The notes under the pieces are model-generated. The model had not been told where the DNA came from. It ran no database searches and saw only the letters and a list, made by a program, of their open reading frames with translations. Position numbers and translations under genes: made by a program. This document shows positions 53,486 through 58,715 of a stretch of 64,000 nt of DNA, one piece after another (position 1 is the stretch's first letter; each line of letters opens with the position of its first letter). This DNA is from a virus (Duplodnaviria > Heunggongvirae > Uroviricota > Caudoviricetes): IMG/VR virus record IMGVR_UViG_3300032030_000012, positions 114,756 to 178,755 of that record; one strand, written 5' to 3'.

Positions 53486-53559
53486 TGGCTCCTCAGATAA
53501 GATTCGAACTTATAATAAACGGTTAACAGCCGCACGTGATACCCTTTCACCACTGAGGA
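53486..53559 (-). tRNA. tRNA-Asn (GTT)
   Basis: Manual cloverleaf: acceptor tcctcag/ctgagga, D gtga/tcac, anticodon loop cTGTTaa, T-arm ataag-ttcgaat-cttat, encoded CCA. Confidence 0.8.
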
Positions 53560-53562
53560 ATA

Positions 53563-53994
53563 TTAAATATTTATAATAGCTTCAAATGAATTTATTTCAT
53601 AATAAATAACTCTTTTAGATTGATTATTTTTAGTAGGCGTATATCTAATTACTACTTCATTTTTATTATAATCATTATTTTTATATAAAAATAATTTATC
53701 TTCAGTTATATTATAAAAAGCATAATAATCAATTTCATCTTTATAAAAGAGTTTTTTATATCCTTTACCGTTATTATTTTTAGTATTAGAAAAAGAATAT
53801 AAAGGAAAACTACAAGTACCATTCTTTTTTAAAGAAGCAGATTTTACTTGAATTTTATTAAGCTTATTATTAAATTCAGCTATTATATCAGCTCTCTCAT
53901 TATCTCCAAAAGGAATATAAACAGGAACATTTAAAGATATAAATTTACATAAAGTTTTTATTTCTCCTAAATTTCCTTTATTTTTAGAATTCAT
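53563..53994 (-). CDS. possible PD-(D/E)xK-type nuclease (homing-endonuclease-like position inside tRNA island)
   Basis: GNLGE ... GDNERADIIAE ... IQVKS spacing; weak. Confidence 0.3.
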   Translation of the reverse strand: MNSKNKGNLGEIKTLCKFISLNVPVYIPFGDNERADIIAEFNNKLNKIQVKSASLKKNGTCSFPLYSFSNTKNNNGKGYKKLFYKDEIDYYAFYNITEDKLFLYKNNDYNKNEVVIRYTPTKNNQSKRVIYYEINSFEAIINI

Positions 53995-54149
53995 TTAATC
54001 TCCCTTTCAAAAATATTGAATGAGTATATTTTAGTAGCAAGTTTTTTACTTCTACACGGCACCTAATACTCTCTTATGCTCAGTCCATATTATTCTTCTT
54101 ATCCCTTATGAACTAGGGATATGTAAGCTTACAAGTCCTTTATAGGACT

Positions 54150-54223
54150 TGGCTCGGGAAACTAGACTCGAACTAATAATACAGGAGTCAAAGTCCTGTG
54201 TGATACCATTTCACCATTCCCGA
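54150..54223 (-). tRNA. tRNA-Gln (TTG)
   Basis: Acceptor tcgggaa/ttcccga, D gtga/tcac, anticodon stem cagga/tcctg, loop cTTTGac, CCA encoded. Confidence 0.8.
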
Positions 54224-54331
54224 ATATAAGTATGAGTAGGCATTGACTCGTACATGCGTCCACATACTATCGCACTTAATAGGTTGTTTACCGACCTACT
54301 CATATAAAACAGAGATGCTATAGTCATCTCT

Positions 54332-54405
54332 TGGAGGTACAGATTGGAATCGAACCAATGATCGAGCTTTTGCAGAGCTTTGTCTTGCCACTTGACTACT
54401 GTACC
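54332..54405 (-). tRNA. tRNA-Cys (GCA)
   Basis: Acceptor ggtacag/ctgtacc, anticodon loop cTGCAaa, T-arm attgg-ttcgatt-ccaat, CCA encoded. Confidence 0.8.
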
Positions 54406-54438
54406 ATATATCAGAGAGTATCTCTACTCTCTATTTGA

Positions 54439-55926
54439 CTATAATTCTTTTGGTTTTGTTAAATCTTCTTTTTTATCTTCAACAGATTTTGCTCCTAGTT
54501 TACCTACAGCATATCCTGCTACTATTGATTTTAAATCTACTCCTAAACTATCTTGAGCTACTTTTAATATCTTATCTATTTTTTGAGTTCCACTTTCTAT
54601 TAATTGAGTTGATTGATCTCCATACATTGTAATTGAATCTACATTTGATAATGGAGTAGATACTTCTTTAGCTATATCGGGAAGTTTATTTATAATCATT
54701 TCTACTACTGAAGCTTGTTGCATTTTAGCTTGTGCTTCTGCTTTCTTTTCGATACCTTTTGCTTCTGCAATACCTTTTGCTTCAATACCAGCTGCTTCAG
54801 CTTCTAATTTTGCTTTTATACCATCAGCCTCTGCTACTGCTTTAGCTCTTATAGCTTGAGCTTCTAATTCTGCTGCTTCTTTATTAGCTTTTGCTATTTC
54901 TATTTTAGCTTGAGCTTCTTGTTTTGCTTTTTCTAGATCAGCTTGAGCATTTTGTATTGTAACTTGTTTTTGAGCTTCTGCATTAATTTCTGCTTTATAT
55001 TTATCTGCATCAGCTTGTTTTCTAACTTCTGCATCTAATTGTTTTTCTCTTAAAGCTACTTCTTTTTCTTTTAATTCAGTTTCTTTTTCTGTTTTAGCTA
55101 TTTCAGCAAGAACTGTGTTTTCATTTATAAGCTTTTGTCTTTCAGCTTTTTGTATTTCATAAATAGTATCAGCTTCTGCTTTTTTCTTATCTTGTTCAAT
55201 TTGATATTCATATTGTTTTAAAGCTAACTCTTTATTTTGTTTTGCTATTTCAGCTTCTGATGCTGCTTTAGCTTCATTACCTTCTCTAGCTGCAGCTGCT
55301 TGTGCTACTTGAACATCTCTTTCAGCTTGGGCTTTTGCTATTTTAGCATCTTTTTGAATCTTTGATAAATTATCAATACCTAAATCATTAATAGCATTAT
55401 TCTCATCTGTACAAGATTGTACATTTAAGTTTACTATTTCTAATCCTATTGCTTTAATATCGTCTTTAGCATTTTCTTGAATTTTAGTTGAAAATAATTG
55501 TTTGTTATTAACTAAATCTTTAAGATTCATTTGACCAATTATTTCTCTCATGTTTCCTTCAAGAACTTGTTGAACATTTCTTGCAATATACTCAGGATTT
55601 TGATTTAGGAAATGTCTTGCAGCTACCTGTATTAATTCAGGGTTGTTAGGTATTCTAACATTTGCTACAGCATCTACATCTACATTAATAAAATCAGATG
55701 TAGGAACTCTTGATGTCTTAACATCAATTTGAATTAACTCTAAAGTTAATTTATCCACTCTCTCAAAGAATGGGATTCTTAATGTTGCTTTACCTATTAT
55801 TACTCTAGGTTCTTTTTTAAGACCTGATATTAAATATACCATATCTGGTGGACATTTAACATAGCTCATGAAAATTAAACCTATCAGCAATATTACAGCA
55901 ACAGCGATAATGATTGCTAATACCAT
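54439..55926 (-). CDS. SPFH/band-7 flotillin-like membrane protein
   Basis: N-terminal TM, SPFH core, long Ala/Glu/Lys-rich coiled coil (flotillin/YqiK architecture). Confidence 0.8.
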   Translation of the reverse strand: MVLAIIIAVAVILLIGLIFMSYVKCPPDMVYLISGLKKEPRVIIGKATLRIPFFERVDKLTLELIQIDVKTSRVPTSDFINVDVDAVANVRIPNNPELIQVAARHFLNQNPEYIARNVQQVLEGNMREIIGQMNLKDLVNNKQLFSTKIQENAKDDIKAIGLEIVNLNVQSCTDENNAINDLGIDNLSKIQKDAKIAKAQAERDVQVAQAAAAREGNEAKAASEAEIAKQNKELALKQYEYQIEQDKKKAEADTIYEIQKAERQKLINENTVLAEIAKTEKETELKEKEVALREKQLDAEVRKQADADKYKAEINAEAQKQVTIQNAQADLEKAKQEAQAKIEIAKANKEAAELEAQAIRAKAVAEADGIKAKLEAEAAGIEAKGIAEAKGIEKKAEAQAKMQQASVVEMIINKLPDIAKEVSTPLSNVDSITMYGDQSTQLIESGTQKIDKILKVAQDSLGVDLKSIVAGYAVGKLGAKSVEDKKEDLTKPKEL

Positions 55927-56102
55927 TTATCTCTACCTCCAAATAAATAATATTTGTCTGTCTCTCCAGACTGTCACGTTGCTTCTTAATGTACTTCTTG
56001 CTCAACACAACGTTTGAACGAGACAAAGTTGCCGTGTACACCTGACCTGTAGAAATATCTGAGTTTCACTACAGAGAGGACTCAAACGCTCATACCTCAT
56101 AC

Positions 56103-57209: not shown

Positions 57210-57557
57210 TTAAATTTTAGTTATTATAGGACAATATCTAGTTTGATAATTAATTTTATACATATTATTAATATAAATAGCTTTAAGATTACCTGTCCTA
57301 GTATAATCTTCTTTTAATTCATTTATTTCTATATTTAAAATAGTTTTATCTAACTCATCTCTATAAGTAAGATAAGGATTATAAGTACCTTCATTTACTT
57401 TTTTAATAGCTCTATCATATTCTTTTTGAAACTTATCTATAATAAGTTGAGGTGCTTGTAATTCTTTTAATTTAACTATTCCATTTTCTTTTTCTTTTAA
57501 TTTTTCTTTATGTTGATTTATCAATAAATCTTTTATAGTCATAATAAATACCTCCAT
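57210..57557 (-). CDS. hypothetical protein
   Basis: ORF track. Confidence 0.5.
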   Translation of the reverse strand: MEVFIMTIKDLLINQHKEKLKEKENGIVKLKELQAPQLIIDKFQKEYDRAIKKVNEGTYNPYLTYRDELDKTILNIEINELKEDYTRTGNLKAIYINNMYKINYQTRYCPIITKI

Positions 57558-57608
57558 ATCTATTATAACATATTTTTTAAAAATAGTAACGTGATTTATA
57601 TAAATTTA

Positions 57609-58076
57609 TTAATCTTCTTCAGCTGAAAAATATATATCTTGTTTATCCATTTCTTCTTTTTCATATTTTCTTAATTTAGTTATTATATCATCATATATAT
57701 CTACCATTACATTAGAATCTATTTCTTGATTCATAGTAGTATCTCTACCTAAATATTTATACCAAGATATTTCTAAATCCTTCATATTAGCTTTAGATTT
57801 ATCTACATAATATTTAAAATTATATTTTTGACATTCATCATCATTCCAATTATAAGCTTCTACCTCAAATACATTATCTAACTTAAATTTATTTCCAGTA
57901 TTACTAAAAGGACTGTCCCATTCTTTATGAGTTATATTATGCATAATCCTATTTAATTCATTATCAATACTATCAAGTAATGCTATAATATATTCAGGAC
58001 ATTTGTATCTTTGTATAGCATTTGGATTAAACATCATATTTCCTAGTTCTAGATTTTCTATATTTGATTCTTCCAT
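57609..58076 (-). CDS. hypothetical protein
   Basis: ORF track. Confidence 0.5.
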   Translation of the reverse strand: MEESNIENLELGNMMFNPNAIQRYKCPEYIIALLDSIDNELNRIMHNITHKEWDSPFSNTGNKFKLDNVFEVEAYNWNDDECQKYNFKYYVDKSKANMKDLEISWYKYLGRDTTMNQEIDSNVMVDIYDDIITKLRKYEKEEMDKQDIYFSAEED

Positions 58077-58123
58077 TTATATCTACCTCTTTTTCTGTTT
58101 AGAGAGATGAAAATATCATCTCT

Positions 58124-58456
58124 CTATTTTCTTTTATAACTTAAATACCAGTTTTTAATGGCCTCTTCTTTGGTTTCATTATATCTAGATTTCCAACTAG
58201 ATACTCCATTTACTATTTCTTTTTGGTCTTTTTCCCAATCATCAATAGCATCTTGTTTAGTTTGATAAGATTTATATTCCCAAAGATCCCAACTATCTAA
58301 TCCAAATCTTTCATAATCTTTTCCATTACCTACATCAAGATTTGTATCTTTTAGTTTTCTTCTGATCTTTCTGTTATTATATTTCTTACCATCTTTTAAA
58401 GATCTTCCCCATAGATTATCTCTAAACTGAGGAAATTTTTTATAACTTCTACTCAT
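58124..58456 (-). CDS. hypothetical basic protein
   Basis: ORF track. Confidence 0.5.
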   Translation of the reverse strand: MSRSYKKFPQFRDNLWGRSLKDGKKYNNRKIRRKLKDTNLDVGNGKDYERFGLDSWDLWEYKSYQTKQDAIDDWEKDQKEIVNGVSSWKSRYNETKEEAIKNWYLSYKRK

Positions 58457-58544
58457 TATTGAGTCACCTCCTTAGGCACTAAGCCCTAGAAGACGTTTTG
58501 TAAGATAATCATAATTACCTCCTCCTTATTATTTATAACATATT

Positions 58545-58634
58545 TGGCGTCATAGGTAAGATTCGAACTTACGGATCCTTTTATAGATCGATGCGTTAGC
58601 AGTGCATTGGTTTAAACCACTCACCCACTATGAC
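58545..58634 (-). tRNA. tRNA-Ser (GCT), class II
   Basis: Acceptor gtcatag/ctatgac, 3-bp D-stem, anticodon loop cTGCTaa, long variable arm, T-arm gtaag-ttcgaat-cttac, CCA encoded. Confidence 0.7.
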
Positions 58635-58638
58635 ATAT

Positions 58639-58715
58639 TGGTCTGATAGGCTGGATTTGAACCAGCGGTCTCTTCATCCCAAATGAAGTGCGTTACCAAG
58701 CTACGCTACTACCAG
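58639..58715 (-). tRNA. tRNA-Pro (TGG)
   Basis: Acceptor ctggtag/ctatcag (one G-U pair), D gcgt/acgc, anticodon stem cttca/tgaag, loop tTTGGGa, T-arm gctgg-ttcaaat-ccagc, CCA encoded. Confidence 0.75.

Follow-up and report, generated by a model that had tools for sequence, protein, structure and literature searches.

An (8/4) tRNA-Ser(UGA) and variable tRNA and putative homing-endonuclease cassettes in a phage tRNA island

Are the eight tRNA genes described on the minus strand of this large contractile-tailed phage (27% GC) all genuine, and how do a flotillin-like gene, a nuclease-like ORF and a CxxCxxCC gene come to lie among them? We analyzed the 64,000-nucleotide stretch of phage DNA that carries them, hereafter the window. 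The preliminary description had read the region as a tRNA island interleaved with these three protein genes, a reading that our results support at its core (Table 1). The explanation that we favor, and regard as quite probable taken as a whole, is a real island of eight tRNAs that includes an (8/4) tRNA-Ser(UGA) and is kept in flux by free-standing homing endonucleases, the flotillin and CxxCxxCC genes having no functional tie to it.

Table 1 Features of the tRNA island, in coordinates of the window
Feature	Coordinates	Strand	Evidence or remark
tRNA-Asn(GUU)	53486..53559	-	ARAGORN, Rfam
143-aa PDDEXK_5 endonuclease ORF (predicted)	53563..53994	-	PF11645, 1.6e-21
tRNA-Gln(UUG), "Gln1"	54150..54223	-	ARAGORN, Rfam
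Terminator-like hairpin with T-run	54311..54331	-	Directly after tRNA-Cys
tRNA-Cys(GCA)	54332..54405	-	ARAGORN, Rfam
495-aa flotillin-family protein	54439..55926	-	PF01145, 7.6e-23
tRNA-Trp(CCA)	56103..56176	-	ARAGORN, Rfam
tRNA-Tyr(GUA)	56255..56341	-	ARAGORN, Rfam 30.0 bits
Non-canonical (8/4) tRNA-Ser(UGA)	56348..56434	-	MFE fold, family covariation, independent covariance-model match
Promoter-like site TTAAAA-17-TATAAT with TG extension	56441..56469	-	Consensus match only; putative function
191-aa CxxCxxCC (YkgJ-type) putative Zn/Fe-chelating protein	56452..57027	-	PF03692, 6.2e-10; phrog_32498, 1.6e-19
Four small ORFs (110, 155, 115 and 54 aa)	57032..58456	-	No match in family search
tRNA-Ser(GCU)	58545..58634	-	Canonical class II, CCA encoded; ARAGORN, Rfam 52.5 bits
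tRNA-Pro(UGG)	58639..58715	-	Canonical, CCA encoded; ARAGORN, Rfam 66.1 bits

The region is a tRNA island of eight genes, seven of which (Pro, Ser-GCU, Tyr, Trp, Cys, Gln and Asn) are canonical and recognized by both ARAGORN and Rfam, six of them with Rfam scores of 52–66 bits. tRNA-Tyr barely exceeds the Rfam gathering score of 29 and is irregular, with a flagged non-standard T-stem pair that we read as U-U; it lies 6 nt after the (8/4) gene and shares 71% identity with the tRNA-Tyr of a sister phage. tRNA-Ser(GCU) starts 4 nt after tRNA-Pro. As previously described, the 3′ CCA is encoded in all eight genes and stable hairpins separate several of them, namely after Tyr, on either side of Cys, and after Gln, the one following Cys being terminator-like.

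The eighth gene, a tRNA-Ser(UGA) candidate, is missed by ARAGORN, even with the options -ps80 or -ps60, and a 121-nt slice containing it gives no match at E ≤ 10 to the Rfam tRNA model or to the tRNA-Sec model (RF01852). Its minimum free energy fold is a cloverleaf composed of an acceptor stem of 8 bp, a linker of 2 nt, a D-stem of 6 bp with a CGGC loop, an anticodon loop CUUGAAA, a variable arm of 5 bp with a GAAA loop, and a T-stem of 4 bp with an AUCGACA loop, followed by G73 and CCA. The 12-bp acceptor/T helix is thus divided 8+4, not 7+5, and the D-arm is similar to that of selenocysteine tRNA. The z-score of this single-sequence fold against shuffles is modest (−1.81). When 11 homologs, the window being left out, are used to build a covariance model, the model finds a single match in the 64-kb window, precisely at 56434..56348 (83.2 bits, E = 3.5e-18). 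As judged from sequence, the eighth gene is a real tRNA despite the ARAGORN and Rfam misses. All eight tRNAs of the preliminary description are therefore retained, seven through the standard programs and the eighth through the covariance model; because these programs are blind to the 8/4 class, a tRNAscan-type test of its cloverleaf would wrongly reject it.

Seventeen unique full-length homologs, one of them from a Lachnospiraceae MAG, occur in phage arrays, metagenomes, and MAGs with backgrounds of 27–67% GC. All 17 carry a serine anticodon (UGA in 16, CGA in one), position 73 is G or U, and CCA is encoded in 15. An identical copy is found in two contigs from other samples, L199 and L200, while the copy of a clade relative, L153, differs from that of the window by 12 substitutions, of which 11 fall in stems, with pairing preserved in all. 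By its described features, the gene belongs to the class termed (8/4) tRNA-Ser or allo-tRNA (Mukai et al., Nucleic Acids Res 2017, PMC5389517). The class shares with the window tRNA the 8/4 split of the 12-bp branch, a tRNA-Sec-like D-arm (long stem and tetraloop), a long variable arm, G73 or U73, and a serine anticodon; it likewise occurs in uncultured phages, within their clusters of tRNA genes, and also in rumen Clostridia. The anticodons of most allo-tRNAs are not those of serine, and the anticodon stem described for the class is longer, compared with the serine anticodon and 5-bp stem of the window tRNA, and the window phage differs in combining one (8/4) with one canonical tRNA-Ser. The class itself, including its presence in phage tRNA clusters, is thus already known, and the window gene adds a member.

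Conservation, together with tests of other allo-tRNAs in E. coli, suggests how the gene might function. Serylation and translation activity of the class in E. coli are described in PMC5389517 and PMC7609411. By analogy with this published work, the (8/4) tRNA would be charged with serine by the host SerRS via its long variable arm and G73, would be accepted by EF-Tu through its 12-bp acceptor branch, and would decode UCA and probably UCU. Of the phage serine codons, 68% are one or the other of these two (TCT 41%, AGT 29%, TCA 27%), and the (8/4) tRNA and tRNA-Ser(GCU) together could cover nearly all serine codons that the phage uses. An extended −10 promoter abutting the 5′ end may drive a transcript shared with tRNA-Tyr. 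The TATAAT of the TTGTTATAAT motif ends 6 nt before G56434, with which the tRNA begins, and L153 has the same spacing; the start-site geometry proposed earlier thus stands, while the motif lies at 56450-56441, 10–19 nt away from the reported 56431. In this AT-rich region, promoter-like sites occur at the chance rate (34, against 36.0 in shuffles).

Alternatively, the (8/4) element could act outside translation, as a tRNA-like decoy, a regulator or a processing signal, or be a decaying pseudogene; some allo-tRNA(UAU) genes are proposed to be such non-translational elements by Mukai et al. (PMC5389517). This would agree with the failure of standard tRNA models to recognize it, with an A instead of U at the first T-loop position, and with the inactivity of some allo-tRNAs in E. 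coli, as reported in PMC5389517 and PMC7609411. In addition, the element is absent from all 15 IMG/VR clade relatives and is therefore no stable clade feature. We nevertheless consider a non-translational role improbable. Every family member and paralog has a serine anticodon, whereas the regulatory allo-tRNAs show diverse non-serine anticodons; CCA is encoded, and the identity set of G73/U73 and long variable arm is retained; the stem substitutions in the family all preserve pairing. In other phage arrays, (8/4) paralogs occur whose anticodons are GCU, GGA, and UGA, and ARAGORN finds no tRNA-Ser there; it finds none in arrays L002, L007, and L008. Finally, a sister phage, L001, fills the same slot with a canonical tRNA-Ser of the same anticodon.

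Comparison of the window with L001 reveals 96–98% identity across the island except in two slots. Slot A carries either the (8/4) tRNA-Ser and one tRNA-Tyr (variant A1, in the window, L199, and L200) or, as in L001, an HNH gene and a canonical tRNA-Ser(UGA) together with another tRNA-Tyr. Slot B is occupied by Gln–PDDEXK–Asn, Gln–Gln, or HNH–Gln, with variant B1 in the window, L200, and L201, and B2 in L199 and L202. The PDDEXK_5 ORF is present in the window, L200, and L201 and absent from L199, L202, and L001, and tRNA-Asn is confined to genomes that also have this ORF. The slot ORFs of L001 belong to NUMOD4 and HNH_3. Because such closely related genomes differ at just two tRNA slots, the island reads as a mosaic of tRNA and predicted homing-endonuclease cassettes. 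This two-slot variation is what is new in the present analysis; the passages of PMC5389517 that we consulted do not mention an (8/4) gene and a canonical tRNA-Ser(UGA) as alleles of one slot in an otherwise 96–98% identical island.

Metagenome assembly errors, or chimeras formed where tRNA sequences repeat, might mimic such a mosaic, as every genome compared is a metagenomic contig and an assembler could be confused by tRNA genes, which are short, conserved repeats. We give this only a slim chance. Apart from that of L001, for which there is one IMG/VR contig, every configuration recurs in two or more independent contigs or samples; the HNH or PDDEXK ORFs of the alternative segments are intact and full-length; and the junctions fall at defined points, for instance directly after the common TTGTTATAAT motif, which in L001 lies upstream of the HNH ORF.

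The PDDEXK_5 ORF, whose stop codon is 3 nt ahead of tRNA-Asn, is likely a free-standing homing endonuclease and has a PADLOC HEase match (3.1e-4). Its sole PDB match, a weak one (E = 0.12), is to 2OST, presumably I-Ssp6803I, which is similar in size (151 aa), has an aligned D...QVKS motif and falls into the same Pfam/PADLOC family. I-Ssp6803I is encoded in an intron, located in a tRNA-fMet gene, whereas the 143-aa ORF is free-standing. The former is a PD-(D/E)xK homing endonuclease (PMC3384342). A homolog in phage My1 adjoins tRNA-Ile, and the PDDEXK_5 and NUMOD4/HNH ORFs each lie directly upstream of a tRNA gene. The preliminary description had compared the position of this ORF with that of homing endonucleases in other phage tRNA clusters, a comparison strengthened by the polymorphism in near-identical genomes, the weak 2OST match and the My1 arrangement. 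In T4, the free-standing homing endonuclease SegB resides in the tRNA cluster (PMC2330249), and tRNA genes are statistically enriched near segB (PMC13096335). As with SegB (PMC2330249), small endonuclease ORFs lie among tRNA genes, flanking tRNAs are inherited or replaced along with them, and close relatives are polymorphic for their presence; the nuclease family differs, GIY-YIG in SegB and, as predicted, PD-(D/E)xK (PDDEXK_5) and NUMOD4/HNH here. We infer that such endonuclease genes, PDDEXK_5 in the window and NUMOD4/HNH in the sister phage, may keep the island in flux: the predicted enzymes would cut endonuclease-free alleles, and gene conversion would bring the adjoining tRNA along. Homing with tRNA co-conversion would explain why near-identical genomes differ only by whole tRNA–endonuclease cassettes; one such difference is that between the (8/4) and the canonical tRNA-Ser(UGA).

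The register of the (8/4) fold is supported by compensatory changes in each variable stem, the diagnostic eighth acceptor pair included. Among the 17 homologs, 135 of 136 acceptor-stem cells are paired and seven of the eight pairs show compensatory changes, the eighth being U-A in 14 and G-C in two; the D-stem pairs in 102 of 102 cells. In the 11-sequence set, 97.7% of cells pair, compared with 33–54% with slid partners, and double changes occur at 15 pairs; none of 500 shuffles reaches the observed value. The T-stem is invariant, hence without covariation signal, and requires a 1-nt bulge in 12 of the 17; the first pair of the anticodon stem is frequently unpaired. An ordinary, merely low-scoring 7/5 tRNA-Ser(UGA), the primary fold of the preliminary description, can also be drawn, as in 14 of the 17 homologs the U before GGAG can pair with the A at the start of the 3′ acceptor strand. 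However, this A is replaced in the other three, which breaks the 7/5 pair (U-C), and two of these have G at position 8 and retain the 8/4 pair as G-C, so that the diagnostic pair is kept in 16 homologs in the 8/4 register against 14 in the 7/5 register. Moreover, covariation and 100% pairing extend to the three outer pairs of the 6-bp D-stem, which is incompatible with a canonical D-stem of 3–4 bp and loop of 8–11 nt, and both ARAGORN and the Rfam tRNA model fail on the gene. The 7/5 reading is accordingly very unlikely, and the 6-bp D-stem with its 4-nt loop, earlier offered as an atypical alternative, is supported as the true fold.

Bacterial tRNA-Sec resembles the (8/4) tRNA in its 8-bp acceptor stem, 2-nt linker, 6-bp D-stem, 4-nt loop (CGGU in E. 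coli selC) and long variable arm, and in its charging by SerRS, expected here too; it differs in its T-stem (5 versus 4 bp), acceptor branch (13 versus 12 bp) and anticodon (UCA versus UGA). In spite of this Sec-like architecture, a selenocysteine tRNA or stop-codon suppressor that recodes phage genes has a negligible probability, since all 17 members have serine anticodons rather than UCA, CUA, or UUA, the branch is 1 bp too short, the Rfam tRNA-Sec model gives no match, and phage ORFs end in ordinary stops (TAA 45, TAG 11, TGA 4) without sign of recoding.

The protein genes were also as first described. The YkgJ-type protein matches the CxxCxxCC family, and the SPFH/flotillin-like protein has a significant Band_7 match plus a Flot domain match and aligns with flotillin-1 (9bq2_B) over residues 23–331 (2.5e-56). 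Like FloT and flotillin-1/2, it comprises a hydrophobic N-terminal membrane anchor, an SPFH domain, and a long, coiled-coil-like Ala/Glu/Lys-rich region. It is assigned as a divergent member of the family, not a FloT ortholog, because its score with the NCBIfam FloT equivalog, 257 bits, falls short of the cut-off of 700. Unlike bacterial and eukaryotic flotillins, it is phage-encoded and rare: tblastn matches occur in eight of 50,697 phage records, in line with the remark, fair for a full-length flotillin, that the gene is unusual for a phage, whereas within its clade it is a conserved core gene. The genes for flotillin and the CxxCxxCC protein are probably ordinary members of the conserved gene set of the clade, in whose surroundings tRNAs have accumulated, without functional tie to them. 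The flotillin has 15 relatives in IMG/VR, with 65–100% identity, and tRNAs lie nearby in the closest ones only.

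The window derives from a contractile-tailed phage with genes for a tail sheath, a portal, a GroEL-like chaperonin, an SbcC-like nuclease and a helicase; its GC content is about 27% and nearly all of its long ORFs lie on the minus strand. ARAGORN called seven tRNA genes in the 64-kb window, all on the minus strand and inside the island of eight tRNAs delimited in the preliminary description (53486–58715). The eighth, tRNA-Ser(UGA), was missed by this program, but is supported by covariation and a covariance model (CM), as detailed below. The seven others reach the gathering threshold of the Rfam tRNA model (RF00005) for the canonical 7/5 cloverleaf, six of them with 52–66 bits. 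The exception is the irregular tRNA-Tyr(GUA), which scores 30.0 bits against a gathering score of 29 and has an odd D-arm and a T-stem with a non-standard pair flagged by Rfam, which we read as U-U. As had been described, CCA is encoded at the 3' end of all eight candidates and hairpins sit between the tRNAs: stable ones were found after Tyr, Cys and Gln and before Cys, the one after Cys being terminator-like.

Coordinates of the features of the tRNA island, its surroundings and related loci
Feature	Locus	Coordinates	Strand	Call or support
GroEL-like chaperonin	window	837-2468	-	phrog_5725, E=2.6e-116
cREC_REC-domain ORF (124 aa) and UDP-glucose/GDP-mannose dehydrogenase-like ORF	window	51044-52214	-	Pfam
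tRNA-Asn-GTT	window	53486-53559	-	ARAGORN
PDDEXK_5 ORF	window	53563-53994	-	PF11645, 1.6e-21, 77.2 bits (cut-off 26.1), residues 1-132
tRNA-Gln-TTG	window	54150-54223	-	ARAGORN
tRNA-Cys-GCA	window	54332-54405	-	ARAGORN
SPFH/flotillin ORF	window	54439-55926		PF01145 (Band_7), 7.6e-23, 81.9 bits (cut-off 23.6)
tRNA-Trp-CCA	window	56103-56176	-	ARAGORN
tRNA-Tyr-GTA	window	56255-56341	-	ARAGORN
Eighth tRNA, tRNA-Ser(UGA)	window	56434..56348	-	CM, 56434..56351
Promoter motif TTGTTATAAT	window	56450-56441
CxxCxxCC (YkgJ) ORF	window	56452-57027		PF03692, 6.2e-10, 40.1 bits (cut-off 23), residues 21-100
tRNA-Ser-GCT	window	58545-58634	-	ARAGORN
tRNA-Pro-TGG	window	58639-58715	-	ARAGORN
Untranslated stretch (323 nt)	window	58716-59038	-	MFE -85 kcal/mol
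TTGACA-17-TATAAT	window	59061-59033		perfect match
NUMOD4/HNH_3 ORF	L001, sister phage	4592-5128
NUMOD4/HNH_3 ORF	L001, sister phage	7464-7985
Class II tRNA-Ser(UGA)-like gene with CCA	L203, Pectobacterium phage My1 (JX195166, about 27.8 kb)	5122-5213
'tRNA-Pyl (cta)'	L008, GC-rich phage array	3169-3251		ARAGORN
'tRNA-Stop (tta)'	L208, flotillin-clade relative	5264-5334		ARAGORN
'tRNA-Ser (act)'	L207	9688-9776		ARAGORN

The eighth tRNA was never recovered in register by ARAGORN, either with default or with relaxed settings (-ps80, -ps60); at -ps60 it appears mis-registered as 'Phe-aaa' amid about 30 false positives. Neither the Rfam tRNA nor the tRNA-Sec model matched it at E<=10 on a 121-nt slice, and the only matches given at that threshold, to miRNA and RAGATH families, are spurious. 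Its MFE fold is a clean cloverleaf that reads GCCUUGGU / AC / UUUGGG-CGGC-CCCAAA / C / CUUGU-CUUGAAA-ACAAG / UG / GUACA-GAAA-UGUAU / GGAG-AUCGACA-CUUC / ACCAAGGC / G / CCA. This corresponds to an 8-bp acceptor stem, a 6-bp D-stem closed by a 4-nt loop, an anticodon loop CUUGAAA presenting the anticodon UGA, a 5-bp variable-arm stem with a GAAA loop, a clean 4-bp T-stem (GGAG/CUUC) and G at position 73. The D-arm with a 6-bp stem and a 4-nt loop, initially noted as an atypical alternative, thus belongs to the MFE cloverleaf itself. Covariation favours an anticodon stem of 5 bp, a sixth pair being formed in the MFE fold only via a bulge.

To collect homologs, viral, genome and metagenome collections were scanned for DNA patterns and the matches passed through a full-cloverleaf filter, which removed most of the 87 plus 103 raw stretches from GC-rich genomes and metagenomes. 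The resulting family has 17 unique members, the window and viral-contig loci included, from backgrounds of 27–67% GC; one was from a Lachnospiraceae MAG. No variation occurs in the CGGC D-loop and its GGG/CCC pairs or in the GGAG-AUCGACA-CU T-arm, and the anticodon loop is nearly invariant (YYUGAAA in 16/17, CUCGAAA in 1/17); all anticodons are those of serine (16 UGA, one CGA). Position 73 is G or U in every member and CCA is encoded in 15 of the 17. The acceptor stem is paired in 135/136 cells, with double changes in seven of its eight pairs, and the 6-bp D-stem in 102/102 cells, with compensatory double changes in its outer three pairs; the variable arm forms a 5–7-bp hairpin of free sequence in 17/17. 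The T-stem, being invariant, gives no covariation signal.

An 8/4 and a 7/5 reading of the branch differ in the eighth acceptor pair. This diagnostic pair covaries (U-A in 14 members, G-C in two) and is formed in 16/17 members versus 14/17 for the 7/5 alternative, which needs an additional T-stem pair that is broken in three members. A MAFFT alignment of all homologs was rejected for mis-registering the 3' acceptor strand, because a T-stem bulge is absent from 5/17 members, and the segments were parsed by script instead. In an 11-sequence alignment, 97.7% of the cells pair in the named structure, compared with 33–54% when the partners are slid by 1–3 columns; both-sided changes occur at 15 pairs, and none of 500 shuffles attained the observed pairing value. 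A CM (R1) built from the 11 bulged members, leaving out the window and its nearest kin, gave a single match on the whole window, at the eighth tRNA (83.2 bits, E ~3.5e-18). The covariation and this single match establish that the eighth element truly belongs to a conserved family of structured RNAs having the 8/4 tRNA architecture, and the present analysis adds an independent, covariation-based validation of that fold. The CM also matched My1 (27.6 bits), but this element was rejected as an 8/4 tRNA, since it is a roughly canonical class II tRNA-Ser(UGA) of 7/5 type. The My1 gene is found in neither the GenBank feature table nor the ARAGORN output.

Mukai et al. (NAR 2017, PMC5389517) described the (8/4) class, which is characterized by an acceptor branch of 12 bp divided 8/4 or 9/3, a long variable arm, G73 or U73, and a D-arm like that of tRNA-Sec, in which a long stem carries a tetraloop. 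They reported '(8/4) tRNA-Ser' with serine anticodons from uncultured-phage tRNA clusters, proteobacteria and bovine rumen Clostridia; a longer-than-canonical anticodon stem is stated for allo-tRNAs in general. The eighth tRNA shares with these molecules the 12-bp branch (8-bp acceptor plus 4-bp T-stem), the tRNA-Sec-like D-arm (6-bp stem and CGGC tetraloop), and the long variable arm and G73 that make up the SerRS identity set. It also carries the serine anticodon that separates (8/4) tRNA-Ser from other allo-tRNAs. By these sequence-level features it belongs to the known but rarely recognized (8/4) tRNA-Ser class. Assignment to the canonical 7/5 type fails, as neither Rfam RF00005 nor ARAGORN gave a match. 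A selenocysteine tRNA is ruled out by the anticodon, which is UGA and not UCA, by the 12-bp branch in place of one of 13 bp (8/5 or 9/4), and by the lack of an Rfam tRNA-Sec match.

Relatives were sought through proteins and DNA patterns, since Megablast with the island found no match among 50,697 phage records. Two more contigs, L199 and L200, which come from other samples, carry the identical 8/4 tRNA sequence. The same slot is occupied by an 8/4 tRNA-Ser(UGA) in a more distant clade member, L153, whose flotillin and CxxCxxCC proteins are 95% and 93% identical to those of the window. The L153 copy has 12 substitutions relative to the window copy; 11 of them are in stems, where they amount to five compensatory double changes and a single change from G-C to G-U and leave all pairing intact. 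At the same slot the sister phage (L001/L205), with island DNA 96–98% identical to the window, has a canonical tRNA-Ser(tga). Canonical Ser(UGA) also occurs in L207. The phage uses ordinary stop codons, and its serine codons are mainly TCT (41%), AGT (29%) and TCA (27%), so that a tRNA with the UGA anticodon and one with GCU would cover nearly all of them. The occurrence of 8/4 and canonical tRNA-Ser(UGA) at one slot argues that the odd fold is that of a working isoacceptor. Allo-tRNAs of 8/4 geometry are reported to be serylated and used in E. coli translation (PMC5389517, PMC7609411), and by analogy the eighth tRNA would be charged by SerRS, accepted by EF-Tu and used in decoding. This allelic exchange between canonical and 8/4 forms in near-identical phages, which is added here, constitutes a natural isogenic comparison and provides a clean way to learn whether the fold brings any benefit.

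Across the island, the window and L001 are 96–98% identical except at two places, slots A and B. Slot A holds the 8/4 tRNA-Ser and tRNA-Tyr in the window, L199 and L200; in L001 it holds a 178-aa NUMOD4/HNH_3/HTH ORF, the canonical tRNA-Ser(UGA) and a tRNA-Tyr of only 71% identity, compared with 99–100% for Trp, Pro and Ser-GCU (window versus L205). The tRNA-Tyr thus seems to travel together with the tRNA-Ser cassette. Slot B reads Gln1 - PDDEXK_5 ORF - Asn in the window, L200 and L201, Gln1 - Gln2 with neither the ORF nor Asn in L199 and L202, and a 173-aa NUMOD4/HNH_3 ORF - Gln2 in L001. Each of the two homing-endonuclease-like NUMOD4/HNH_3 ORFs of L001 lies directly upstream of a tRNA that differs from that of the window.

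The nuclease-like ORF of slot B proved to be a PDDEXK_5 member and also matched the PADLOC homing-endonuclease model (3.1e-4). It is present in the window, L200 and L201 and missing from L199, L202 and L001, against a backdrop of flanks 96–98% identical in nucleotide sequence to L001 and a flotillin protein identical on L199–L202; its stop codon lies 3 nt before tRNA-Asn. Its sole PDB relative is 2OST (E=0.12), which we take to be I-Ssp6803I, with the catalytic D...(E/Q)xK motif aligned as D...QVKS. I-Ssp6803I was the first homing endonuclease shown to have a PD-(D/E)xK core fold (reviewed in PMC3384342). In the T5-like phage My1 a homolog of the ORF is also located within the tRNA region, adjoining tRNA-Ile, and the arrangement in the window agrees with what is known of SegB from the tRNA cluster of T4 (PMC2330249); tRNA genes are enriched near segB (PMC13096335). 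Comparison of these genomes reveals a mosaic island, built of tRNA and homing-endonuclease cassettes that turn over between close relatives. The cassettes contain three endonuclease genes from two families (HNH and PD-(D/E)xK), which would drive the exchange of cassettes by cleavage and homing. Such turnover is in line with recent evidence for an influence of endonucleases on the anti-defence tRNA content of phage tRNA clusters, to which we add a cassette polymorphism linked to HNH and PD-(D/E)xK endonuclease genes.

Why the fold should be kept can be approached from the defence side. Mutations in the anticodon loop let phage tRNAs escape tRNases (PMC10264068), and selection of the fold for evading tRNA-targeting defences would be compatible with that work and with PMC13096335. 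A fuller scheme, which we regard as improbable, is that the 8/4 tRNA-Ser(UGA) is an allele swapped with the canonical tRNA-Ser(UGA) and the adjoining tRNA-Tyr by homing-endonuclease-driven gene conversion, and kept either for resistance to a host tRNA-targeting defence nuclease, through its altered acceptor/T/D geometry, or for its fit to a host with 8/4 tRNA-Ser. If true, tRNase evasion would extend from anticodon-loop mutations to remodelling of the whole fold. That a Schlafen-type defence cleaving type II tRNAs drives the fold is speculation: the bacterial Schlafen paper places cleavage in the anticodon arm, and tRNA-Ser and the acceptor stem are absent from its text.

A promoter had been proposed at 56431, with its start site at the 5' end of the eighth tRNA. 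The motif has the form of an extended -10 (TGnTATAAT), preceded at a distance of 17 nt by TTAAAA, and lies further upstream than claimed. The geometry of the proposed start holds: between the -10 and G56434 there are six bases (AUAUAU), so that the predicted +1 coincides with the mature 5' end. The TATAAT-6 nt-G spacing is kept in L153, and in L001 the motif stands ahead of the inserted HNH ORF. However, sites resembling promoters are no commoner in this AT-rich region than expected by chance (34 versus 36.0 ± 5.6), and no fixed -10 was found upstream of unrelated 8/4 homologs. Leaderless transcription of the eighth tRNA is plausible, and in the improbable scheme above a promoter abutting the 5' end would also free the 8/4 tRNA from RNase P processing. 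At the upstream end of the island, a perfect TTGACA-17-TATAAT site stands ahead of the untranslated stretch upstream of tRNA-Pro, which contains several long hairpins; together they are a candidate for the main promoter and leader of the island. Directly downstream of the island are the cREC_REC-domain and dehydrogenase-like ORFs, called from precomputed Pfam matches on homologous genes of contigs L199–L202.

The SPFH/flotillin and CxxCxxCC (YkgJ) assignments of the other two protein genes were borne out by Pfam. The C-terminal region of the flotillin scores just under the cut-off of PF15975 Flot (25.9 versus 27 bits) and the protein matches eukaryotic flotillin-1 at 2.5e-56; with 257 bits against a cut-off of 700 for the FloT equivalog (NCBIfam NF058507), it is a flotillin family member and not a FloT ortholog. 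It is indeed unusual for a phage: full-length flotillins are rare in sequenced phages, with tblastn matches in 8 of 50,697 phage records, among them a crAss-like phage with the annotation 'flotillin family protein', and no study devoted to flotillins encoded by phages turned up in the literature. Membrane organisation, lysis timing and exclusion are conceivable roles. The identical protein is encoded on four further contigs, and relatives of 65–100% identity on 15 IMG/VR contigs of 9–144 kb. tRNAs surround the gene only in the closest relatives, those of 90% identity or more, and the set differs in each; more distant relatives have 0–2 tRNAs nearby. By this distribution the flotillin gene is conserved in the clade and tRNAs have accumulated around it; it is not part of a tRNA-linked module, and its conservation is a curiosity separate from the tRNA story. 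Screened with PADLOC, neither the flotillin nor the CxxCxxCC protein nor any of the small ORFs matched a defence system.

In the window phage, one of the two tRNA-Ser genes is canonical (GCU) and the other is of the 8/4 type (UGA). In three unrelated phage tRNA arrays (L002, L007 and L008), ARAGORN found 7–22 tRNAs per array and no tRNA-Ser, while the CM revealed 2–5 8/4-type tRNA-Ser genes in each, with anticodons UGA, CGA, GGA and GCU; these phages appear to use the 8/4 fold for every serine tRNA. There are thus phage arrays, as shown here, in which routine annotation overlooks every serine tRNA. The blindness of ARAGORN and of the Rfam tRNA and tRNA-Sec models to the 8/4 class is a systematic blind spot, as a result of which phage tRNA inventories and codon-compensation analyses under-count serine tRNAs. 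The 'tRNA-Stop (tta)', 'tRNA-Pyl (cta)' and 'tRNA-Ser (act)' genes called by ARAGORN in related and unrelated loci may be suppressor or otherwise odd tRNAs.
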